Part shown: piece after piece, positions 2,702-18,873 of the stretch
How the letters are laid out: the number at the start of each line of letters is the position of its first letter
How positions within the stretch are numbered: position 1 is the first letter of the stretch
IMG/VR virus record: IMGVR_UViG_3300009175_000062
Coordinates: 1-29,043 of that record
Source: a virus
Lineage: Duplodnaviria > Caudoviricetes
Direction: 5' to 3' (one strand)
Length of the DNA stretch: 29,043 bases
Notes under the pieces: model-generated
What the model was told of the DNA's origin: nothing
What the model saw: the letters and a program-made list of their open reading frames with translations, nothing else
The model's database searches: none
Made by a program: the position numbers and the translations under genes

Positions 2702-2800
2702 GATAAACCGCGGCATAAACCCTGCCAACAGTTGCAAAAAATGACATTTTAAAATGGATCATTGGTACCGAAAGAGAAAATGATCTTTGATAAGCAAAGC

Positions 2801-3754
2801 ATGAAAAGGATAGGTAATTTATACACACAGATCTGCAGTATTGAAAACTTACGACTGGCCGATTCAATTGCCCGAAAAGGCAAGGCAAAGCAGCCCGGAA
2901 TCATCGCACATGACAAAGAAAGAGAGGATAACATTGAACGACTTCATAAATCACTCATGAATAAAACGTACCGGACCTCTGAGTATACCACCTTTACGAT
3001 CCATGAGCCAAAGGAACGACTGATATTTCGTCTGCCGTATTATCCTGACAGAATCACTCATCATGCCGTGATGAACGTCCTGGAGCCATTGTTCGTTTCC
3101 ACCTTCACCGCAGATACATACAGTTGCATAAAGGGACGCGGGATCCATGGAGCAGTCCGGGCGGTTAAAATGGCACTCCGGGATAAACAGGGCACTGCAT
3201 ACTGCCTTAAACTTGATGTGCGTAAGTTCTACCCGAACGTGGATCATAATGTGTTAAAAGAACTCCTGCGCAGAAAAATAAAGGATCAGGATCTGCTCTG
3301 GCTTCTTGATGAGATTATCGATTCCACCGACGGCCTGCCGATCGGCAACTATCTCAGCCAGTATTTCGCAAATTTCTACCTCACTTATTTTGATCACTGG
3401 CTCAAGGAGCAAATGAACGTGAAGTATTACTTCAGGTATGCCGATGACATGGTAATCCTCGCTGCCGGCAAACCGGAGCTTCATCAGCTTATGAGTGAAA
3501 TAAGGAATTATCTCGAGACAAATTTAAAATTGTGTGTAAAGGATAACTACCAGGTATTCCCGGTGGATGCCCGTGGGATTGACTTCGTTGGTTATGTTTT
3601 CTTTCATTCTCATACACTCCTTCGTAAAAGCATCAAACAAAACTTTGCCCGCATGATAGCACGTCGCCGGAATCCGGCTTCCATCGCATCATATAACGGC
3701 TGGGCAAAACACGCGAACTGTAAAAATCTACTTAAAAAACTACTCGATGAATAG
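2801..3754 (+). CDS. DGR reverse transcriptase (about 317 aa)
   Basis: MKRIGNLY start, PKERLI, PDRITHHA, LKLDVRKFYP, DGR-type LPIGNYLSQ and RYADD; no maturase or HNH domain. Confidence 0.95.
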   Translation: MKRIGNLYTQICSIENLRLADSIARKGKAKQPGIIAHDKEREDNIERLHKSLMNKTYRTSEYTTFTIHEPKERLIFRLPYYPDRITHHAVMNVLEPLFVSTFTADTYSCIKGRGIHGAVRAVKMALRDKQGTAYCLKLDVRKFYPNVDHNVLKELLRRKIKDQDLLWLLDEIIDSTDGLPIGNYLSQYFANFYLTYFDHWLKEQMNVKYYFRYADDMVILAAGKPELHQLMSEIRNYLETNLKLCVKDNYQVFPVDARGIDFVGYVFFHSHTLLRKSIKQNFARMIARRRNPASIASYNGWAKHANCKNLLKKLLDE

Positions 3755-4052
3755 ATTCGGCGAATTCAATATTAAAGTCAAACGGAAGGTTTTTGTTGGA
3801 GGAAAGATCAATATGGCGAAGATACTGGGTAAGGAGATTATTATTCTTGACTTCAAAATAGAAGAATCAAAGTGTTTCAAACAGAAGGGATCCGGAATGT
3901 GTCTTTGCCTTCAAATCTCAATTGAAAGTGAAAAACATATCGTTTTCACCTCGTCAAGTTATCTCATCGAGATGATCGAGCAGGTCCCGTCAGCAAGTTT
4001 TCCGTTTGCCACCATTATCGTTGAAGAAAATAAAGGATTCAAATTCACTTGA
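3747..4052 (+). CDS. Small beta-rich protein coupled to RT; candidate non-Avd DGR accessory factor
   Basis: Overlaps the RT stop by 8 nt; alternating hydrophobic strands (IIILDFKI, LCLQI, HIVFTSS, FPFATII). Confidence 0.6.
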   Translation: MNRFGEFNIKVKRKVFVGGKINMAKILGKEIIILDFKIEESKCFKQKGSGMCLCLQISIESEKHIVFTSSSYLIEMIEQVPSASFPFATIIVEENKGFKFT

Positions 4053-4363
4053 TCATGGGAAAAATATCTTCATATAAAAAATTAAAACTTCAAAATCTTG
4101 AACTCATTCGCGATTTACGATTAATCGTCATGAATGATAAATCCGTTGATGCTACTTTATCATTGTGTAAGTGGAGAATAAAATTTGAACAGGAAAATCG
4201 ATTTGTATTTGGTAATCAAATTGGTAAAACTCTGTGCAAATGCAAGGTAGTACCCGTGGATAGTTGTGGACTGTTTCCTATGTGTAATGGATGTTCAGAG
4301 AAACCAATTCAGAAGAATGAATCAAAGTCTGACAGACTTTTCAAAAATTCATACATAAAATAA
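4049..4363 (+). CDS. Hypothetical protein, Cys-rich C-terminal half
   Basis: ORF coupled to the previous gene; CKC...C....CNGC. Confidence 0.5.
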   Translation: MIMGKISSYKKLKLQNLELIRDLRLIVMNDKSVDATLSLCKWRIKFEQENRFVFGNQIGKTLCKCKVVPVDSCGLFPMCNGCSEKPIQKNESKSDRLFKNSYIK

Positions 4364-6724: not shown

Positions 6725-8866
6725 ATGAAAAGAGTAATTGCAATGTTCTATGCGCTTCTCAGTATTGAGGCCTTCACAAAGGGCCCGGATGGAAACATCT
6801 GCTTCACTGACGAGCAAAAGGCAAAGCTGGAGGCTGCAGGGCTTGGAGATGATATCCAGGCCAAGTTCATTGCCGCCTTCGCAAAGGATGCTGAAAAAGA
6901 GACACCGGAGTCACAGGTTCTGGTGGATACCATTACGGCAAGCATGCAGGAAAAACTGACAGCATCCATTGCTGAGCAGGGTCGCCTGAATGTATTGCTG
7001 ACGGCTGAGAAGTCAGCCAAAGAAAAAGCAGAGGCCGCGGTGACTGAACAGAAGCTCATCATTGCACGGCTACAGAAAAAACCGGAAGACGATCCGCCTT
7101 CCAATTTAAATGACCCAACCATGAAAGACAAACCGTGGATTCCAAAATCCGGGGCAACCCATCTTTTCGCCGTAGCTGAGCCTTTCTTTGCTGTGGACGA
7201 TGCACACCCTTATAACCAGCGCGCCATGGCTGCCATTTCTGCGCGTCATGGTGTGTCGATTGCCGCACCGATGCACATCAATGCCGCAATTGATTATTCT
7301 TCTCTGAGCGCTGATCTTGGCGATTTCTATCGCACAAGAAAACAGGACAGGATACAGAGTTTCCTGACTGATCTCCCGTCAATCACCAGCGTCTTCCCGA
7401 CTGAAAGCGGTGTTCAGGATCAAACCGCACTGGTCAACATGTTCCTCACGGAATTCTCCCAGGCAGATAACACCTCATCTACCTTCGGTAATGTGGTAAA
7501 GGGCAGTTTCAAGTTCGAAGCCGAGATCATTACCATGTTCGATGTGATGTTCGCGCACAAGTTCACAGATCTCAAGAAACTTGAGAAACAGTGGATCGGG
7601 TACCTGAACAAGGAAGGTTCATCCACCATGAAATGGTCGTTTATCGAATTCATCATGGTTGAAGTCGGCCGGCAGCTGAAAAACGAACAGGAAATGCGCT
7701 GGATCAACGGTATCCGCAAAAATCCGATTCAGAATGTTTCTGGAACGGCAATGGGCGCTTCAAATGGTTTCCGCAAGTTCATTGCAAACCAGATTGCAGC
7801 TTTCAAAATCAAGCCATTTACCCTGGGAGAATGGACCGAATCCAATATTGTGAGCAATATTGAACTTGGTACATCCATGATTCCTGCTGCTATCCGTGAT
7901 AGTGGGAGAGTTGTTCTTTACATGGCACCGGCTGCATTGACAGCGTACCATAAGAACCTCGAAATCCTCACCGGTATTATGCCGACTTACAAGCCTGGAC
8001 AGATGACCGTCAAGAATTACGATTCTGTCTCCATCGAGGTTGTCCCGAACATGGGCGTTTCGAAAAGATTGGTTTGGTCGATCAAAGGAAACATTCACAC
8101 CTTCGAGGATCAGCCGAATGAAATGCTGAATTTCTCATTCCAGCAGGAAGACTGGGGATTGAAAGTCTGGTCAAACTGGAAAGAATCAGTATGGGCTTAC
8201 CTGGTCGGTAAGAAATATGCCAGCGCTGCTGACATGCCGGATGATTACAGTACCCAGATGATCTGGACCAACGACGTCGATCTGCCGGCAGGTTTCTATC
8301 TCCCGATGGATACTAACGACACATCTCCTTCCATTGCGAACCATACATCCCTGATCTCTGTTGAGAACAGTCAGGCTACAGCTATCACCGATTTCGATGA
8401 TGCTGTGACGGGCCAGACAATCCGTGTTAAATGTGGACCGGGCGCCAACCCGATCACCATTGCCAAGGCAAACAAGTTTTCGCTGCTCTCGGCTGCATGG
8501 ACTCCGGAACCGGGGAATGTTCTTGTGATCAAGAAGCGTTCCGATGGTAAATGGATCGAACTGGAGCGTATCACTGAAGAAACAGATGCCATTGTGATCG
8601 CCGATGGCGATACCACTCCGGACGTTTCTAAGGGAACGAAGTTCATCACCAGCTCTAACACTGCAGCATGTGCCATCACAGCCCTTGACAATGCAATCTA
8701 TGACACTGAGTACGTGATCATGGGTGGCAGTGGCAATCACTCCAGCACCATTGCAAATGCGGGGAACTTCTCTCTCACGGCAGCAATGACTCTCGCCGCA
8801 GGTACATTCATCAAGCTCCAGAAGAGCAGGGTGGACGATAAACTTTGGGAAATTGATCGCGGATAG
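6725..8866 (+). CDS. Major capsid protein with N-terminal scaffold-like coiled coil and C-terminal duplicated domain
   Basis: 713 aa following the prohead protease and ending at a terminator; assignment by position and architecture. Confidence 0.72.
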   Translation: MKRVIAMFYALLSIEAFTKGPDGNICFTDEQKAKLEAAGLGDDIQAKFIAAFAKDAEKETPESQVLVDTITASMQEKLTASIAEQGRLNVLLTAEKSAKEKAEAAVTEQKLIIARLQKKPEDDPPSNLNDPTMKDKPWIPKSGATHLFAVAEPFFAVDDAHPYNQRAMAAISARHGVSIAAPMHINAAIDYSSLSADLGDFYRTRKQDRIQSFLTDLPSITSVFPTESGVQDQTALVNMFLTEFSQADNTSSTFGNVVKGSFKFEAEIITMFDVMFAHKFTDLKKLEKQWIGYLNKEGSSTMKWSFIEFIMVEVGRQLKNEQEMRWINGIRKNPIQNVSGTAMGASNGFRKFIANQIAAFKIKPFTLGEWTESNIVSNIELGTSMIPAAIRDSGRVVLYMAPAALTAYHKNLEILTGIMPTYKPGQMTVKNYDSVSIEVVPNMGVSKRLVWSIKGNIHTFEDQPNEMLNFSFQQEDWGLKVWSNWKESVWAYLVGKKYASAADMPDDYSTQMIWTNDVDLPAGFYLPMDTNDTSPSIANHTSLISVENSQATAITDFDDAVTGQTIRVKCGPGANPITIAKANKFSLLSAAWTPEPGNVLVIKKRSDGKWIELERITEETDAIVIADGDTTPDVSKGTKFITSSNTAACAITALDNAIYDTEYVIMGGSGNHSSTIANAGNFSLTAAMTLAAGTFIKLQKSRVDDKLWEIDRG

Positions 8867-10279: not shown

Positions 10280-10761
10280 CCGTCAGTTCTGTACCTGCCT
10301 TCAGGATCAGGGATGAATTCCCTTTCCTAAGGGAGAAAACCTGCCCTCCAGAGCTGAAGATCCTTGTGGCAGATATGTTGACCGCACATGAGGCTTACCA
10401 GAGCGCTCATGTGTGGTTATTTTCGTGCTCCACACAACCGGAACTATTTCAGACGTCAAAAACTATCGTCGAAAACTATCTGGAGAACCGCAGGATCTGG
10501 GATGAACTGAATTTCTACAAAATCAACGGATCCCTGCTTGGCAAACATCCCATTTTCGAATCCTTACAGCGTAATGAGTTCATTCGCGGCTTGAAAACCG
10601 GAGAATTGGTCCAGCTCAAGATCCGGTTGGAAAACAACCTGGTACGCAACCGGTCTGCCCTTAAAAGGGACCCTCATTCCAAGGAGGCTGCCGCCCGAAT
10701 CGAGCGGATTGAAAAAATGGAGACAGAATTACTTGAAGTAAACCGTTTACTCAATATTTAG
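10267..10761 (+). CDS. -1 frame extension of the preceding ORF (fusion about 296 aa)
   Basis: The -1 frame is open from the slippery site (PKKIAVSSVPAFRIRDEFPFLREKTCPPELKILVADM...) into the listed ORF 10366-10761. Confidence 0.65.
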   Translation, partial: PKKIAVSSVPAFRIRDEFPFLREKTCPPELKILVADMLTAHEAYQSAHVWLFSCSTQPELFQTSKTIVENYLENRRIWDELNFYKINGSLLGKHPIFESLQRNEFIRGLKTGELVQLKIRLENNLVRNRSALKRDPHSKEAAARIERIEKMETELLEVNRLLNI

Positions 10762-11360
10762 TGGATCATCATAAGTTCTTTGATATAAACCATATTAGTT
10801 CTGAGATCAAGGGAAAGGGACCGGTTCAACAATCAGGCATCCATGTAGAAAAGTTTCTTCAGGTCCATGTTGAGAAGGTCGAAAGCATCAAGAATTTGGG
10901 CGGCAGATTCCCCAGGGATGGAGAGATCTACTTCCTGTGGACTGTAAAAAGCTTTAACGCTTTCACATTCATTCCCTATATCATCCATGAATGCGGATAT
11001 ATTGATGAGCTGATTCTTTCGACCTATTCCATCAACATCCGGATCATCGATGCGCTGATCCGCCTGGTTGATCTTAAAAAAATTGGTTCAGTAGAGATTT
11101 TTATCAGTGACTCGATCCGAAGCCGGTTGCCAAAAGTTAATGATCACCTCTCTGCCCTGGTTAAGAACTACCCGGTTCGCGTCACATATTGCTGGAATCA
11201 TTCCAAAATTACATTGATCCGCACCGGAAGTAATTATTTCTGTGCTGAAGGATCCGGCAACTGGGGTGAGAACGCACAACATGAACAATATATTTATCTG
11301 AATTCAAAGACTGTTTTTGAATTCCGCAAAAATGAAATACTCAATGTTACTAAAAGCTGA
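10761..11360 (+). CDS. Phospholipase D (HKD)-like domain protein, possible nuclease
   Basis: ILSTYS...HSKITLI...EGSGNW...EQ pattern of single-domain PLD-fold proteins. Confidence 0.7.
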   Translation: MDHHKFFDINHISSEIKGKGPVQQSGIHVEKFLQVHVEKVESIKNLGGRFPRDGEIYFLWTVKSFNAFTFIPYIIHECGYIDELILSTYSINIRIIDALIRLVDLKKIGSVEIFISDSIRSRLPKVNDHLSALVKNYPVRVTYCWNHSKITLIRTGSNYFCAEGSGNWGENAQHEQYIYLNSKTVFEFRKNEILNVTKS

Positions 11361-12231
11361 ACAATTAGACGAAATATCCAAACTAGCGGGTATCAATTAC
11401 TCGATAGAGGAGATTGCCATGTACCTGGATGTGGATCCGGATGAACTCGAACGGGAATATAACCTGGAAGATTCCGAGGTCAGATATCATTATAACCGGG
11501 GCCGGCTGGTTAACCAGGCACAAATCGATATGGCCAATATGGACCGGGCTAAGGATGGAAACCTTACATCCATTGAACAGTGGAAAAAGGACGCCAAAGC
11601 TAAGAAACTGGAGAATTTCAAAAGGCAGCTGCTCTTCGATAAAGAACGCAAGGAGTATGAATCAATTCAGGCCTTGGTTGAGAAAGGAGAAACCCGAAAC
11701 CTTCCAGAAAAGCTTGTTCAGTACTTTGAACAGATCGATTATATCCGTTGTGTAATTGGAAAATTTAAATCAAAAACCCAGGTCATCAACATGGTGGCTT
11801 TAAAATGGCCACAGCTCTCCAAATACGTGATCACAAACCTCTATTATGAGAGTATCAATTTCTTTAACCTGGATAATGAGGTAAAGCCGCTTGCCTGGGC
11901 AAACTTCTATGCGGATAAATTGGATAACATGTCGCTCATTGCCCTGGAAATGGGTTTGATGGAAGAGGCCAGACGCTGTCTCAAGGATGCTGCTGAGATG
12001 CGCGGTGTTGGAAAAGATAAGCCGTTCCAGATCCCGCCGGAATTACTTGAGCGTAAACCGATACTTTATACAATCAAATTACAAGATTTAGGTATCGAGC
12101 CGATAAGTCGGAATGTTCTGTCAGGCTGGATCGAGAATCTTCCTATAACATCTATCGAAAAAAGGAAGGCAAAACAGGATGCCATGATTGAAGATGTAAC
12201 CTTTGAACTGCTGGACCATGAAGAAAATTAA
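11344..12231 (+). CDS. Putative terminase small subunit region protein
   Basis: N-terminal HTH-like YSIEEIAMYLDVD; overlaps the terL start. Confidence 0.55.
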   Translation: MLLKAEQLDEISKLAGINYSIEEIAMYLDVDPDELEREYNLEDSEVRYHYNRGRLVNQAQIDMANMDRAKDGNLTSIEQWKKDAKAKKLENFKRQLLFDKERKEYESIQALVEKGETRNLPEKLVQYFEQIDYIRCVIGKFKSKTQVINMVALKWPQLSKYVITNLYYESINFFNLDNEVKPLAWANFYADKLDNMSLIALEMGLMEEARRCLKDAAEMRGVGKDKPFQIPPELLERKPILYTIKLQDLGIEPISRNVLSGWIENLPITSIEKRKAKQDAMIEDVTFELLDHEEN

Positions 12232-13903
12232 ACTAACGGCTGAAGATGCCGACTTGAGATATTCAAATTGGATTGCTACGCTGATTGACCTGATCAAACC
12301 GGCCAATCTTTACCTGATTGGTGGCCGTGGAACCGCAAAAAGTACCGATATTCTTGCAAAGAGGACCATCGATGTGATCTATGACATGCCCAGGGCCAGC
12401 TTTGCGTTCGTTTCAGACACCTACGTCAACCTTATGACGAATATTATCCCGGCCATTCTGCTGGGATGGGAGAACCGGCAGGAGTTTTTTGAGAAGTATC
12501 ATTTTGTTGTGGATGAACCGCCCCCTGATTGGTACGCAAAACCATACATTAAGACATTTTCTTTCAAACATACCATTTCAACCTTCAATGGTTGTAAATT
12601 CTTCCTGACATCATTGGACCGGCCAAGCTCCAATGCCGGGATCTCTGTTGTGCATCATTTTGGCGACGAGGCGAAGTATCTGCAGGAACAGAAACTTCGA
12701 AAGTTATTCCCCACCCTCAGGGGTGACTATGCGCTCTATGGCCATTCACACTATTTCATGGGGCAGACTTTCTGCTCAGATATGGCAGATCCCAGCGTGG
12801 GAGAAGATGACTGGATGTTGCGTATGGCTAAGAATATGGACAAGGAACAGATTCACATGATCCTTCAGGCAGCCATTGTTGTCAATGAAATTAACTGGGA
12901 ATTATATGAGGCAGAGCAGGAAGGGAATCAAAAAAAAATTGCCCTGGTTAAGAATAAGCAATCCAGATGGATGGAAAAACTCAAGAAGGTTCGCTATAAC
13001 AGTACCTTCTTCTATGTGGTCAGCTCATTCGCAAATGCCGATATCCTTACCCTTAAATATTTTGAGAACCTGCTGGCAACACTCACCTTCGAGGAATTCA
13101 AAACTGCCGTGCTATCAATCCGTAAATCCCTGGAGAAGGGTATGCGCTTCTATGCCGAGCTGGGTGATCGACACTTCTATGAAGATGGGTACAACTATGA
13201 CTACTATGACCACTTTGGAATTAGAGATAGTGTAAGCCAGACATCTGAAGGGTTGAAGTATATCCAGAAGGACCAGCCACTGGAGGGTGGATTTGATGCG
13301 GGGAACATGATGAGCCTGGTCATTGGTCAGGAACAGGGCAATACGATGCGCATCTTGAAAGGCATGCATACGATCAGTCCTGAGTGGATAAGGGAGTTAG
13401 GTGATAAGTTCATCACATTCTTTGCACCCCATAAGAAGAAGATCCTAACCCTGTATCATGACCGATCCACCAATCAGTATCGTAAGGTTGGTAAGGACTT
13501 CGCATCGCAACTGAAGCATGACATTGAGTATGATAAGGCAGGCAAACGAACAGGGTGGATGGTAAATCTTATGAACGTTGGTCAGGGTGATATCACCCAC
13601 GCTGAAGAGTTCAACCTGATGAATGTTATCCTGGGGGAGAAGGATAAGCGCCTGCCTCATGTTGCAATTGATAAGTTCGAATGCAAGGAACTTAAGAGCC
13701 AACTCGAGATAACGCCTGTAACCAAGGGTTCAAAGGGTCAAATACAAAAGGTCAAGAAGGGAGACAAACTTCCACCCTCTCGTCTGGCTTATGAGTCAAC
13801 CAACTATACGGATGCATTCAAGTATCTCATGTGTAGACCCAAGTGGTTGTCTATTGCTAAGCAAAAGCAAAGTCTAACCTTTTCCTCGATAAGTTTGAGA
13901 TAG
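12218..13903 (+). CDS. terL: Terminase large subunit
   Basis: Walker A GGRGTAKS, Walker B HHFGDE, RNase H-like GFDAG and C-terminal TDAFKY. Confidence 0.88.
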   Translation: MKKIKLTAEDADLRYSNWIATLIDLIKPANLYLIGGRGTAKSTDILAKRTIDVIYDMPRASFAFVSDTYVNLMTNIIPAILLGWENRQEFFEKYHFVVDEPPPDWYAKPYIKTFSFKHTISTFNGCKFFLTSLDRPSSNAGISVVHHFGDEAKYLQEQKLRKLFPTLRGDYALYGHSHYFMGQTFCSDMADPSVGEDDWMLRMAKNMDKEQIHMILQAAIVVNEINWELYEAEQEGNQKKIALVKNKQSRWMEKLKKVRYNSTFFYVVSSFANADILTLKYFENLLATLTFEEFKTAVLSIRKSLEKGMRFYAELGDRHFYEDGYNYDYYDHFGIRDSVSQTSEGLKYIQKDQPLEGGFDAGNMMSLVIGQEQGNTMRILKGMHTISPEWIRELGDKFITFFAPHKKKILTLYHDRSTNQYRKVGKDFASQLKHDIEYDKAGKRTGWMVNLMNVGQGDITHAEEFNLMNVILGEKDKRLPHVAIDKFECKELKSQLEITPVTKGSKGQIQKVKKGDKLPPSRLAYESTNYTDAFKYLMCRPKWLSIAKQKQSLTFSSISLR

Positions 13904-14245
13904 TTCGCCTAAGTGAAGGATCCTGCCATCTGGTGGGATTTTTTTTGCGCATTGCCCGCCCCGTGTGGGATTCACTCATATGTCCACCGGCGGCGAGGGG
14001 TGCACGTGCGCCGGCGCGGCTGAGCGGGTCGTGTAGAATCGTGAGATTTGTTTTTAAAAATGAATCGAAATTTTCGCAAAAATCGAAATTCCAGATATTT
14101 ACGGTTTTTGTGTTTAAAAAAAAGGGGCAAAGTTGCCCGTTCTCAACACAAAGTTGAATATTTGACTTCCTTTTTCTTTGATTATTGCCTGCAAAGAAAG
14201 AGGAAGCGAAAAAGAATACAGCTCATCCCACCCACACTATTACTC

Positions 14246-14429
14246 GAAATTTATAACAAAGCTACCGTAGGGAAACCCCTCGTCGCTTCGCTCCTTTTGA
14301 AATAGTAAAGGGCGATCTCCTGAAGGATCATATCGCTTTCAGTGTATTCAGTCCGATTGCTATCGGAATAGACCTACACCCTTGACTTTATTCAGTTTCC
14401 CCGGTGTGTTGCTTCGCAATTAAAATTTC
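14246..14429. promoter_or_regulatory. Fold-back leader of cassette 1
   Basis: Arms GAAATTTATAACAAAGCTACCGTAGGGAAAC / GTTTCCCCGGTGTGTTGCTTCGCAATTAAAATTTC; inner ATTCA..GACCT motif. Confidence 0.65.
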
Positions 14430-14467
14430 TTGTTCAATCGCGGCCACGCTGCACAAAACTCAACCTT

Positions 14468-14641
14468 ATGAAAGCCACTACAAACACTAAAGAACAGAAC
14501 TTAGTTGACATTCTCGCTGCTGAATTAGATGAAATCTATTATCCAGGCTATTCTGAAGAGATCATGAACTCTGATCCTCTGAAGTTCCAATTTGAACTTG
14601 ATGAGTTCAAAGGCCAGTTGGCCGAAGAAATTAAAAAGTAA
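14468..14641 (+). CDS. Small acidic protein (57 aa), not in the ORF track
   Basis: MKATTNTKEQNLVDILAAELDEIYYPGYSEEIMNSDPLKFQFELDEFKGQLAEEIKK; bounded by a leader and a terminator. Confidence 0.75.
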   Translation: MKATTNTKEQNLVDILAAELDEIYYPGYSEEIMNSDPLKFQFELDEFKGQLAEEIKK

Positions 14642-14650
14642 GAAGTACGG

Positions 14651-14677
14651 CGGCAGTCATAGACTGCCGTTTTTTTT
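14651..14677 (+). terminator. Rho-independent terminator
   Basis: CGGCAGTC-ATA-GACTGCCG followed by T8. Confidence 0.9.
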
Positions 14678-14720
14678 ATGCTCGTCCTGCTCGCAAGTTT
14701 AAATGCGTTGGCAAATCCAG

Positions 14721-14914
14721 GGCCATGGAGAGCGATGAGAATTTACAAAGTTATGCCATGGGAAAATATTTTTCGCTAAGCGTGACCGCCTAAAGGCATT
14801 GTCACCTTTCAGGATCATTCAAATTCACTGCCGCGAATTATGACCTGATCACTTGCTTAAAATTTTCTCCGAGGCATGCTGGTACTGGTAAATTTCATTT
14901 ACTCACCATCGGCC
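14721..14914. promoter_or_regulatory. Fold-back leader of cassette 2 (radC)
   Basis: GGCCATGGAGAG..AATTTAC..ATGCC..GAAAAT pairs with ATTTTC..GGCAT..GTAAATT..CTCACCATCGGCC. Confidence 0.7.
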
Positions 14915-14940
14915 ACACAGCTGATTAAAACTATCAGATT

Positions 14941-15642
14941 ATGAAAACTACTTATTCGAACACCATCCCGATGAGATCCTGGTCAGAAGATGATCTCCCA
15001 TCTGAAAAATTACTACTCAAGGGCAAAGCAAGCCTTTCAGATGCTGAGCTCCTGAGCCTGATCATAGGGTCCGGAATCCAGGGGAATAACTCACTTGATA
15101 TCGCTAAAAAGGTACTGGCATCATCGGCAAATAACCTATCTGATCTCTGGCGTCGCTCCTTCACAGACCTGCGGCAGATAGAAGGCATTGGCAAAGGGAA
15201 GGCTGTTCAGATCCTTGCCATGATGGAGCTGGGGCGCAGACGCTCTGAAAGTGAGGTATTCGCCAAGGCAAAGATTTCAACATCCAGGGATGCCTACGAT
15301 ATTCTTCATGCAGTACTGGGGGATCTACCATATGAAGAATTCTGGATGCTGATCCTTAACAAGGCAAACAAAGTGATCCGCAAAATAAAGATATCTGAAG
15401 GCGGTATCTCCGGAACGGTCGTAGATCCAAAGAAGATCTTTAAGATATCACTCGATTTTCACGCCTCCAGTATTATTCTCGGGCACAATCATCCAAGCGG
15501 AAACCTTCAGCCCAGTGAAGCGGATATCAAGATCACGAAAAAGCTCAAGGATTCGGGAATTCTTCTCGACATATCAGTACTGGATCATCTGATCATCGGA
15601 GATGACCGATACTATTCATTTGCAGATGAAGGGGCGATTTAA
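14941..15642 (+). CDS. radC: RadC family JAB-domain protein
   Basis: LSDAELL, HhH GIGKGKA, EEFW, HNHPSG...PSEAD, LDHLII. Confidence 0.95.
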   Translation: MKTTYSNTIPMRSWSEDDLPSEKLLLKGKASLSDAELLSLIIGSGIQGNNSLDIAKKVLASSANNLSDLWRRSFTDLRQIEGIGKGKAVQILAMMELGRRRSESEVFAKAKISTSRDAYDILHAVLGDLPYEEFWMLILNKANKVIRKIKISEGGISGTVVDPKKIFKISLDFHASSIILGHNHPSGNLQPSEADIKITKKLKDSGILLDISVLDHLIIGDDRYYSFADEGAI

Positions 15643-15672
15643 CCCATTGCTACCCGGTAATTCTGATTCTTT

Positions 15673-15708
15673 AAGCTGCTGTGTAACCCACAGCAGCTTT
15701 TTCTTTTT
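15673..15708 (+). terminator. Rho-independent terminator
   Basis: AAGCTGCTGTG-TAACC-CACAGCAGCTT followed by a T tract. Confidence 0.9.
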
Positions 15709-16020
15709 AAAAAATTGTAAAGTCATTATTTCAGCTAATTACACTTGTAAATGGCTTCCATTTGTGAAACATTTGAGCACCTTCAAATTGAACTTATTGC
15801 CTTCGTGTTACTTGATCCTGATGCAGCTTTAAAATTTAATGGCAGTAATTTTTGTGCAATTCCTATGCTAAGCTATTATCCCATTCCTGGGTAAAAGTGA
15901 TACTCATTCAAGAATTTTCCCGGCATATCCTGCATGTATTCGGTATTCCAGTTCCTTCTTGAGTGCCCTTACATGGTCTTAATTACACTTGCATATAAAT
16001 TTCACTTAAAAATCACAGCC

Positions 16021-16332
16021 ATGAAAAAATTTGTAAAAAACTACATCGGAAAAGGAAAGAAAGTTGAAGGACTTGAAATCATTAAGATCAATTTTAAAGT
16101 TGAAGATCTCGTGAAGTTCTCTCACAAATACAAAGGGGAAGACTACATCTCAATTGAAATTGCGAAGCTCAAGAGCCCGGACCAATTCGGACATAACTAT
16201 ACTGCTTATGTAAACCGCCTTGAAGAATCTAAAGAGAATGACCAGGTATCGAAAAGTGAAAATCCGAAAAAGAAAGGATCTGCTTCAAAGAAAGTATCAA
16301 AGAAGGTATCATCCGAGGATTTTCCATTCTGA
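16021..16332 (+). CDS. Small beta-rich protein with SSB-like acidic C-terminus (EDFPF)
   Basis: ATG at 16021 follows an A-rich leader; low-complexity linker ends in an SSB-Ct-like tip. Confidence 0.7.
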   Translation: MKKFVKNYIGKGKKVEGLEIIKINFKVEDLVKFSHKYKGEDYISIEIAKLKSPDQFGHNYTAYVNRLEESKENDQVSKSENPKKKGSASKKVSKKVSSEDFPF

Positions 16333-16352
16333 TCCCAAATAGAATGTCTGAG

Positions 16353-16386
16353 AAAGACCGCCCTTCGGGACGGTCTTTTTTTATTT
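16353..16386 (+). terminator. Rho-independent terminator
   Basis: AAAGACCG-CCC-TTCG-GGA-CGGTCTTT with a UUCG loop and T tract. Confidence 0.85.
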
Positions 16387-16581
16387 GGCCTATCACTACT
16401 CAAAATTTAAGGCAAAGTTAGCCTCATGAAAATATCATGTCACTAAATGCAACCTCCTGCAGGATCCGTTGCCCGTTGGGTTCATTCAAATTCCCGGGAC
16501 CGGGAATTGTGACCTGAACGTTTGTGCCAGAATTTTCATTCCGGCTGTGGATGATGGCATAAATTTTAACCAGGCGGGCCA
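16386..16581. promoter_or_regulatory. Fold-back leader of cassette 4
   Basis: TGGCC..AAAATTTA..AGCC..ATGAAAAT pairs with ATTTTCAT..GGCT..TAAATTTT..GGCCA; inner GTTCATTCA..GACCTGAAC. Confidence 0.7.
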
Positions 16582-16619
16582 GATGCCGACATAAGTCTCC
16601 AGGGCAGGAGCAAAACATT

Positions 16620-17045
16620 ATGACAAAGATTACATCACCTGTACAGCAGCCGACAAACGGGAAGGCTGCATCTTCGGATGTAAAAAAGATTGCCGATACG
16701 GCAAACACAATCCTCTCTAATCCATCTGTCGAAGAAAAGAAGATTGTTGTTCCCGTTGCACTGCTTTCGGAGCCCAGGAAGGAAATGACTCTCCAGGAGA
16801 AGATCATGAAAATTGAGAACCTGCAGCTGGTGGTTGGTAAACGCGAAAAATTGGTTGCCACCCGCTCTGAACTCGACCGCTTCCAGATCTCCTCCAATGA
16901 TTTCAATTGCACCATGAGATTGAATGACTCAGACGGGAATGTGTTTTCTACCAATTTCACTCCCGGGATCAAGAAAGTCATTGAGTTCCTTAAAGGATCA
17001 TTTGATGCAAGTATCGCTGAGGTTGAGAAAAAGATAAATTTCTAG
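16620..17045 (+). CDS. Hypothetical protein (disordered N-terminus, coiled coil)
   Basis: 141-aa ORF between a leader and a terminator. Confidence 0.75.
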   Translation: MTKITSPVQQPTNGKAASSDVKKIADTANTILSNPSVEEKKIVVPVALLSEPRKEMTLQEKIMKIENLQLVVGKREKLVATRSELDRFQISSNDFNCTMRLNDSDGNVFSTNFTPGIKKVIEFLKGSFDASIAEVEKKINF

Positions 17046-17063
17046 CTGTCTTTGCTTAGTTCG

Positions 17064-17096
17064 GGAGTTCCGTAAAAAAACGGAACTCCTTTTTTT
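17064..17096 (+). terminator. Rho-independent terminator
   Basis: GGAGTTCCGT-A-rich loop-ACGGAACTCC followed by T7. Confidence 0.9.
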
Positions 17097-17119: not shown

Positions 17120-17154
17120 GTCCTTTAAAAAATTTCCTGGTCAAAGTATGTTTG
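17120..17154 (+). promoter_or_regulatory. Late promoter copy 3 (GTCCTTTA-N19-TATGTTTG)
   Basis: Positioned to restart late transcription after the island; ATG only 3 nt downstream. Confidence 0.8.
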
Positions 17155-17454: not shown

Positions 17455-18873
17455 ATGAAAAATAAAGATCAAAAACCGTCAGATGTAAAGGTCATCAGAG
17501 AAGGGAATGTCGCCTTCGGATTCAGTCCTGTTGGTGTTTATGCCTTCAGCGTGGCCGGTTCACAGCAGTTTGCAAGCCCTTCTGTCCTTCCTTTCTACAC
17601 CCATTCAAGGGCATTACTGCCCACGATCATTGGAGACTTCCGTATTGTTCCCATGGGAATGGAAAATAATTATCCGGAAGAGATCCGGATGATTATTGAT
17701 GAGGATAACTTCCTGCCTCAGGGACTGAAGAAGGATTTCGGTCTGATCTGGGGTCAAGGGCCTGAACTTTACAAAATAAGATTCCAGGACGGAAAGAGAT
17801 TTAAGGAATTCGTTACCGACTCCAAGATTCAGGCATGGCTAGATAGCTGGGATTACAAAGAATATTTACTCCGTGCAACCACGGATTATACCACAATCAA
17901 CGGTCATTTTACGAAGTTTTATCGAAATCGCGGTGTGCGGGTTGGTGCCGCCCCGATGATCGTGAACCTGGAACACGTTTCCAATACGTTTGCCCGCCTG
18001 GAATGGCCGGATCCCAATTATGTAGTCCACAATATCATTGTAGGAGATTACCGGCAACCATGGAAGTATGGATTACGGGCCTACCCGGTGTATGATCCTT
18101 CGGATCCGTTTGCCTACCCGGTAGCAATGAGTTATAGTAACCTGTATAACTTCTCTCTCGATCATGAGTATTCCCGGGCTCCATTCCATGGGGCATTGAA
18201 CTGGATCAAGCTGGCCAGCTCCATTCCCAAATTGCTTTCAAACTTCAATGCAAATTCAGCGGCGATAAAGTATCATATCGAATCGCCTCAGGAATACTGG
18301 GCATCGGAGAAACTTAAACTTGAGCAAAAATGTATTGAGGAAGGCAAACCGTATACTGAAAAAGTATTCGAAGATTTTAAAGACAAGGTCTTTGAAAGAA
18401 TAACGGCCGGTCTCAGTGGAATTGAAAAAGTTGGCAAAATCATTACCACCGAATCGTTTTTCTCGGAGATAAGCCGCAATGGGGACCTCACCGGATGGAA
18501 GATTACCGTACTGGACCAGAAAGTGAAAGATTTCATCGATGCACAGATCGGGATTGCCCGCGAAGCATCTTTCCAAGTATCTGCCGGCATCGGGTTACAT
18601 CCTGCCCTGTCCAATCTTTCTAAAGACGGGAACCTGCCCAGCGGCTCTGAGCAGCTCTATGCATTCAAACTTTACCTGATGACTTCCATTGATATCCCGG
18701 AACTGATCATCATGAAGGCTATCAATGCTGCCATTCGTGCCAATTTCCCCGGCACAGATCTTTACCTTGGATTTTATCACAACGCGGTACTTACAGAAGA
18801 GGCCACGAATCCCAATGACCGGGTAAAACAAGCAGATACCGGGATCCCTCCCAAATCTGTACCGGTTCAATAA
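17455..18873 (+). CDS. Putative portal protein
   Basis: 472 aa; first large gene after terL and the island; assignment by size and synteny. Confidence 0.65.
   Translation: MKNKDQKPSDVKVIREGNVAFGFSPVGVYAFSVAGSQQFASPSVLPFYTHSRALLPTIIGDFRIVPMGMENNYPEEIRMIIDEDNFLPQGLKKDFGLIWGQGPELYKIRFQDGKRFKEFVTDSKIQAWLDSWDYKEYLLRATTDYTTINGHFTKFYRNRGVRVGAAPMIVNLEHVSNTFARLEWPDPNYVVHNIIVGDYRQPWKYGLRAYPVYDPSDPFAYPVAMSYSNLYNFSLDHEYSRAPFHGALNWIKLASSIPKLLSNFNANSAAIKYHIESPQEYWASEKLKLEQKCIEEGKPYTEKVFEDFKDKVFERITAGLSGIEKVGKIITTESFFSEISRNGDLTGWKITVLDQKVKDFIDAQIGIAREASFQVSAGIGLHPALSNLSKDGNLPSGSEQLYAFKLYLMTSIDIPELIIMKAINAAIRANFPGTDLYLGFYHNAVLTEEATNPNDRVKQADTGIPPKSVPVQ

Follow-up and report, generated by a model that had tools for sequence, protein, structure and literature searches.

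The DNA analysed here (the window) is the 29,043-nt stretch at positions 1 to 29,043 of IMG/VR virus record IMGVR_UViG_3300009175_000062, from a tailed double-stranded DNA (dsDNA) phage. Between its gene for the terminase large subunit (terL) and a gene for a 96-amino-acid (aa) protein (17158) and the portal gene (17455) lie four open reading frames (ORFs), each followed by a hairpin and a T-run. An earlier note, made from the sequence alone, had described an array of four genes with their own terminators, three of them behind imperfect inverted repeats; the ORFs and terminators were confirmed, and folding recovered long imperfect stems at about the positions it gave for the three repeats. Two features go beyond that description, a fold-back leader belonging to gene 3 and a probable cohesive-end (cos) site on the terminase side. 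The array reads as follows.

13977..14035, plus strand: conserved bipartite site, with CATAT.TCC, a central palindrome and a GC-rich 9-mer (14023-14031)
14161..14211, no strand assigned: T-rich/A-rich hairpin between the cos-like site and leader 1, present in many relatives
14246..14429, minus strand: leader 1; -7 box TAGCTTTG at 14257-14264 (minus strand), proximal -33 TTG at 14382-14384
14468..14641, plus strand: gene 1, a 57-aa acidic protein without a family match, with homologues in the cassettes of relatives; terminator 14649-14671
14721..14914, minus strand: leader 2; -7 box TAACTTTG at 14746-14753, proximal TTG at 14853-14855
14941..15642, plus strand: gene 2, RadC (UPF0758 N-terminus and JAB domain); terminator 15673-15699
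15839..16022, minus strand: leader 3, of a second conserved fold-back family; away-pointing TAGCTTAG at 15868-15875, proximal TTG at 15959
16021..16332, plus strand: gene 3, 103 aa; terminator at about 16350-16381
16396..16575, minus strand: leader 4; -7 box TAACTTTG at 16413-16420, proximal TTG at 16522-16524
16620..17045, plus strand: gene 4, 141 aa, no family; terminator 17063-17090

The promoter consensus of Bacteroidota consists of a -7 and a -33 element (PMC7366714, PMC2483708), and in leaders 1, 2 and 4 candidates for the two elements lie on different arms of the fold-back. The minus-strand TAnnTTTG boxes of the earlier note are exactly at 14257, 14746 and 16413, in the arm distal to the gene and pointing away from it, and TTGCTTCG is found at 14409 as it had reported. 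No sense-strand box occurs within 300 nt of genes 1, 2 and 4, and about 20 nt of the distal arm of leader 1 are looped out. DNA folding of both strands against shuffled sequences, which had been proposed as a check, returned the stems, but their strength was modest, with z-scores of -1.1, -4.7 and -2.2 on the minus strand for leaders 1, 2 and 4, and of -2.4, -3.0 and -2.8 on the plus strand. Because the folding scores are modest and the TAnnTTTG box by itself is no more frequent in the window than chance predicts (20 seen, 22.3 expected), relatives were needed for a test, and the case for the leaders rests on their conservation among relatives rather than on the window alone. A search of Rfam gave six weak matches in the window, none of them inside the cassette.

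The second fold-back family, represented by leader 3, has an away-pointing TAnCTTAG and is also found ahead of the gene-3 homologue in integrative and conjugative elements (ICEs). As a split promoter, leader 3 is less clear than leaders 1, 2 and 4, because a near-consensus forward TACACTTG is also present at 15984, giving TTG-22 nt-TACACTTG on the sense strand. Summed contig depth over this leader (window 15716-16117) was several-fold above the rest in four lake sequencing runs, indicating that the gene-3 leader is common to many co-occurring elements. In all four of these runs a contig joins leader 2 to leader 4 (window 14867 to 16578; short side 27 nt); such joins may reflect related elements, or else leaders recombining with each other, which could drive cassette shuffling.

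A profile seeded on 21 leaders retrieved 95 distinct copies, 79 of them near full length and 69 at less than 90% identity to one another (mean identity 58%). All 95 lie on the gene strand, and inside the cassette slot wherever a terminase or portal operon could be placed. The architecture that the earlier note had suggested looking for downstream of terL in related phages is present there, as one leader family with 69 non-redundant copies. The away-pointing -7 box of the distal arm is exact in 54/69 copies and has at most one mismatch in all 69, although most of the profile seeds had been picked by this box, so that the count of 54 is partly circular. Two further counts are independent of seed choice: an exact box on the sense strand occurs in 0/69 copies, and the -33 TTG is present in the proximal arm of 65/69, compared with 19/69 for its partner in the distal arm. 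Pairing between the arms, likewise independent of the seeds, reaches 0.75-0.93 upstream of the box and 0.78-0.97 in a downstream AAATTT stem but is 0.38 at box positions 2-4, such that the -7 box sits in a poorly paired bubble flanked by two conserved stems. The distance from the proximal TTG to AAATTT is held at 36-44 nt, compared with 29-64 nt for the distal equivalent. A TTG lies 19-21 nt from the distal box in the duplex, the canonical -33 to -7 spacing in Bacteroidota, in only 4/69 copies, and a complete promoter would therefore be formed only upon folding.

The two arms of a leader also appear to evolve together. In 51/52 phage copies a leader's own arms match each other better than they match the mean of other leaders' arms, and in 18 of these they match best of all. 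Among the 27 copies below 70% identity, mismatches of the wobble type favour the template strand by 43 to 18, against a background of 1.29-fold in mismatched arms. A consensus folding of the 69-copy alignment was set aside in favour of per-copy arm alignment, since loop-outs misalign the arms and only the inner stems were recovered. Together, these comparisons give good support to the view that the leaders have a split promoter anatomy, complete only when the template strand folds, and that selection acts on the template strand. The earlier note had likened the leaders to Frpo promoters, with extrusion of cruciforms as a second option; the template-strand geometry of the former is borne out by the split elements, the covariation of the arms, the strand asymmetry and the polarity in ICEs described below, but the arms seem too imperfect for the latter. 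It is likely that the leaders fire from single-stranded DNA (ssDNA). Some leaders (L006:7000-7012 and 8838-8850) contain TAAGTGCGCCCT, which we take to resemble a MOBQ nick site and which is not conserved across the family.

The same leaders occur in elements that enter cells as ssDNA. A sequence-model search of the host order found matches in 10/151 genomes, one of them in an ICE with TraG, J, K, M and N, and three of six related ICE regions fetched around traG carry leaders, as does the G087 ICE. These leaders sit before homologues of ArdC, RadC, gene 3 and gene 4, and all nine copies examined have the exact away-pointing box and none a forward box. The ICE cassette, the tra genes, a repeat resembling an origin of transfer (oriT), mobC and the relaxase gene are all co-oriented. 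In conjugative transfer the relaxase gene enters last (PMC11541004); if that holds here, the transferred strand would be the template of the ICE leaders, as with Frpo. Element G492 (MobF) has no leader and is uninformative. In a tree of the leaders, eight ICE copies form one branch and the phage and satellite copies are deeply diverged; therefore the design has long been kept in phages. Queries with relaxase, coupling-protein, tra and ICE oriT sequences gave no match in the phage loci.

In the phages, the array adjoins what is probably a 3'-cos site (13977-14035) with a fixed end after 14022. Its bipartite motif follows the terminase gene in most close relatives. When contigs ending less than 1 kb from the site were compared, 9/27 ended at +45 to +59, three of them at +46; the pile-up has a binomial probability of about 1e-8 after correction, a rough figure because two of the phages are near-identical. 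Phage Leef (Helgolandviridae) ends at +58 of a degenerate homologous site, and the deposited junction of Ingeline (Duneviridae) lies inside the 9-mer. The contig ends, Leef and Ingeline are all consistent with a 3' overhang that spans about +46 to +58. The end type given for Leef, Cos 3', is a PhageTerm prediction (PMC8776804), and the available text of the papers on laban6-1 and the Porphyromonas phages states no end type. Of eight sequencing runs compared as contigs, one breaks exactly at 14022, another from the same study is uncovered across the site and six are continuous, a weak observation that was not counted.

The array starts about 190 nt inside the site and reads inward from the fixed genome end. 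This arrangement is widespread: of 61 distinct arrays from phages and satellites, 52 are preceded by the motif in their own orientation, with the first leader at a median of 192 nt, and six of the other nine are cut contigs. In distant clades the motif and the cassette are inverted jointly, and the cassette lies behind an ordinary-looking forward promoter. The conserved site was also considered as an oriT, and its CATATATCC presumably resembles MOBP nick sites. That candidate was dropped: contig ends pile up at +45 to +59 rather than +10, and there is no convincing copy in seven ICE regions, where a search gave two loose pattern matches, both away from the cassettes.

These observations suggest a mechanism in which the leaders act during genome entry. 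The cos end would have a 3' overhang and be the first to enter; a conserved box 46 nt to the terminase side may be the packaging-initiation element, in which case the cassette end would be last packaged and first out. From what is known of RecQ-RecJ and of the lambda cos architecture, 5'-3' resection would spare a 3' cohesive end, and the end that goes in first could not be closed into a circle before ejection is complete. A host helicase-nuclease could then strip the plus strand while sparing the 3' cohesive end, and the template strand, whose 3' end would face the cos end, would be bared by 5'-3' resection there. On folding of that strand, the distal arm would give the -7 box on the non-template side and the proximal arm the -33 TTG and the spacing, and host RNA polymerase with the Bacteroidota primary sigma factor would fire the hairpins. 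The products (ArdC, single-stranded-DNA-binding (SSB) or SSB-tail proteins, and RadC) may protect the bare strand until annealing of cos and gap filling shut the genes off, after which no repressor would be needed to silence them in the prophage. The position of the array beside a probable 3'-cos end points to entry, over a generic replication or packaging state, as the source of ssDNA. We put at roughly 0.5 the probability of this reading, in which the phage cassette promoters are a Frpo-like type of Bacteroidota and fire once the cos end has been resected 5'-3' on entry, leaving the template strand exposed.

Several observations weigh against this reading, in addition to the partial circularity of the box count. 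Contig ends from metagenome-assembled genomes that fall less than 1 kb from the site include none (0/9) in the +45 to +59 bin, which is expected for prophages. Because the inverted clades use ordinary-looking forward promoters, the inversion links the cassette, not the hairpins, to cos. Arrays extend 8-9 kb from the end, so long resection would be required, and the prior chance that a 3' end faces the template strand is one in two. Folding z-scores below -2 were reached by the template strand in 40/69 copies and by the sense strand in 38/69 (12 shuffles each), a moderate result, and the template strand folds better in only 3/9 ICE copies. Two ICEs have a reverse, truncated relaxase gene to the left of the cassette, and in one mobilisable element the leader, a degenerate copy, is oriented against the relaxase gene. 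Finally, the -33 element is reportedly not required (PMC2483708), so that in duplex DNA the distal box might drive leftward transcription.

The last point leads to an alternative in which the distal -7 box of the phages is an ordinary duplex promoter for a leftward antisense or small RNA, the genes being read from weak or unrecognised forward promoters and the fold-back being inherited from ICEs. In its favour, the box is near-perfect and Bacteroidota promoters can do without the -33 element (PMC2483708, PMC7366714); there is also a conserved hairpin about 50 nt leftward of box 1, and gene 3 has its sense-strand TTG-22 nt-TACACTTG. However, leftward RNA would exclude the fold-back and so leave the arm covariation and the conserved proximal TTG unexplained, no sense box is available near genes 1, 2 and 4, and the deep divergence of phage and satellite leaders, with the eight ICE copies on a single branch, speaks against a recent relic; we regard this explanation as improbable. 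Another possibility retains ssDNA promoters but delays exposure of the template, which would come about through rolling-circle or lagging-strand replication, or at the free end that terminase creates by cutting cos on concatemers. The evidence from anatomy would apply equally to it, a primase gene lies upstream of the cassette in the same orientation in both phages and satellites, and strand displacement would expose long arrays more easily than resection. A fork moving with transcription, though, would bare the plus rather than the minus strand, and neither the establishment-type cargo nor the way the cassette stays with cos through inversions speaks for late expression, which leaves later exposure unlikely but deserving of consideration.

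The common leader family and cargo of phages and ICEs in the same host group would also fit a scenario in which a host conjugative element moves the prophage or its excised circle as ssDNA and the leaders fire only then. That scenario seems quite improbable: no relaxase, coupling protein or ICE-type oriT was matched in the phage loci, the conserved site behaves as a double-strand end, and an oriT there would put the cassette last or on the wrong strand. We also give very little weight to extrusion of the leaders as cruciforms by negative supercoiling of the circularised genome, in the manner of N4-type hairpin promoters. Folding energies are similar for both strands, as that would predict, but imperfect arms with large loop-outs would make extrusion from perfect duplex costly, the mismatch asymmetry favours one strand, and no RNA polymerase was matched among the 47 ORFs of the complete relative G001. 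Passage of the genome across the inner membrane as a single strand, 3' end first, through a competence-type channel would bring the template strand and the cassette in first and would account for the long arrays; yet one strand could not close by cos annealing, nothing tested supports the route, and it is likewise highly doubtful.

The window itself is a fragment of the genome of a temperate siphophage of Bacteroidales related to Duneviridae. The window contains a methylase, a reverse transcriptase, a head protease, the terminase, a portal operon, a holin, an endolysin and the start of a tape measure gene. Features flanking the cassette are these.

12218..13903, plus strand: terL, 40% identical to the annotated terminase of Bacteroides phage BT-TP2
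13913..13945, plus strand: terminator-like hairpin 3' of terL, which would shield the cassette from terL read-through
17147..17154, plus strand: ordinary forward -7 box TATGTTTG ahead of the 96-aa gene (17158) and the portal operon, an internal contrast to the leaders
17455..18873, plus strand: probable portal protein, by synteny with the annotated portals of Ingeline, BT-TP2 and Leef

The terL product is about 31% identical to the terminase large subunit of Porphyromonas phages and 44-47% identical to cultured Duneviridae proteins; affiliation with Duneviridae was compared at the level of terminase identity and synteny. Most labels of close relatives in genome collections read Bacteroidales or Bacteroidota, with Draconibacterium among them. 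An integrase, primase, tape measure and lysozyme are present in the complete relative G001 (44 kb), whose 47 scanned ORFs gave no relaxase match. In relatives the same slot holds a variable cassette of up to about 10 kb whose cargo includes RadC, ArdC, SSB, SymE, ParB, KilA-N and genes without a known family. Gene 4 homologues occur throughout the cassette family and in phage 6H as well as in ICEs. Gene 3 ends in a conserved acidic (I/L/F)PF tail resembling the SSB C-terminus; it had no family match in Pfam, PHROG, NCBIfam, PADLOC or the PDB, its Atlas neighbours are without names, nothing real was found in the plasmid collection, and a single-sequence structure model was uninformative (predicted local distance difference test score 53). 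In three cassettes (L011, L018 and L020), restriction-modification and other defence-like genes are inserted among the leader-driven genes without leaders of their own.

Elsewhere in the window, the reverse transcriptase (2762-4363) and adjacent small ORFs are conserved in G001 and L213 and look like a diversity-generating retroelement. A 199-aa gene just 5' of the terminase genes (10761-11360) has a positional counterpart with a PLD nuclease domain (L213:3029-3622); HNH proteins help cos cutting in other 3'-cos phages, and by analogy the 199-aa protein might assist it here. A prophage spanning L212-L213 (G007:C1:12000-50000) has a Leef-type terminase just 21% identical to that of the window, together with the same cos-like motif and leader family. 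Three tail-less integrated elements (L215:8900-15700 in G007, L259:2500-9100 and L253:1600-18700) combine primase-type replication genes with a leader cassette and one or two cos-like sites; no relaxase was seen in them, and L215 lies at mnmE with an integrase and a VapE helicase. They look like candidate satellites of these phages, of the phage-inducible chromosomal island type, resembling mobilisable elements in which cos replaces the mobilisation (mob) region.

Our data suggest that the leaders bear mechanistic similarity to the Frpo/ssi promoters described from the leading regions of F and IncI plasmids (PMC9849209, PMC11541004, PMC7690428). In both, a non-coding stem-loop of about 200-250 nt rebuilds promoter boxes from one strand, is repeated within a region and is placed 5' of genes with a role in establishment, for example ssb and anti-restriction genes; in silico, fold-back of one strand in the leaders restores boxes that are incomplete in the duplex, as in Frpo/ssi. 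The leaders differ in having Bacteroidota -7/-33 rather than sigma-70 -10/-35 boxes, in providing one leader and one terminator per gene, and in their position next to a cos-like site, in phages and satellites that gave no match to a relaxase or oriT. In a search of 72,556 plasmids, leader 4 gave just one chance match of 22 nt and leader 3 nothing real; the leaders would thus work like Frpo, yet they are not sequence members of the Frpo family.

Establishment clusters of Bacteroidales ICEs (G087, G957, G1015 and G1021) are closer, with homologous leaders of both families and with RadC, ArdC, gene 3 and gene 4 as cargo, but ICEs enter as ssDNA through a relaxase and a type IV secretion system, neither of which was found in the phage, and the sampled ICE leaders lie on a branch apart from those of phages and satellites. 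The Duneviridae phages Ingeline, 6H and laban6-1, and Leef, have a related terminase, gene order and terminal site, and in 6H and laban6-1 a cassette of gene-4-like, SymE, ArdC-N or DUF932 genes reads away from the site; in 6H and the inverted clades, unlike here, the cassette forms a single operon that follows a forward promoter of ordinary appearance, and it has no match to the leader family. The hairpin promoters of the N4 virion RNA polymerase, with their short perfect stems, own polymerase and dependence on supercoiling, are a precedent for a DNA hairpin as promoter in a tailed dsDNA phage. The leaders here have long imperfect stems and host sigma boxes, and the scan of G001 disclosed no phage polymerase.

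Known single-strand promoters come from conjugative plasmids, in Proteobacteria and in some Gram-positives, and no report of such promoters in Bacteroidota, cos phages or double-stranded phages was found in literature searches that covered listings and the beginnings of abstracts and reached few subscription papers (PMC7077304 and PMC10367356 were among the texts consulted). The leaders described here form a Bacteroidota family, common to ICEs, cos phages and satellites, in which the split design is clear and the arms covary naturally. We tentatively propose, at somewhat less than even odds, that a clade of temperate dsDNA cos phages and its satellites has swapped the ordinary early promoter for conjugation-style single-strand promoters, such that host resection becomes the on-switch for counter-defence genes, one that would sense nuclease attack, end at circularisation and be silent in the lysogen without a repressor. 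If true in the phage, a tailed dsDNA genome would pass through a functional single-stranded phase as it enters, and a simple reporter could then test what becomes of injected ends, including entry order and resection before circularisation. In Bacteroidales elements, the leader also points to anti-defence candidates among genes without a known family, and it offers a promoter for Bacteroidota that would be active only on ssDNA.

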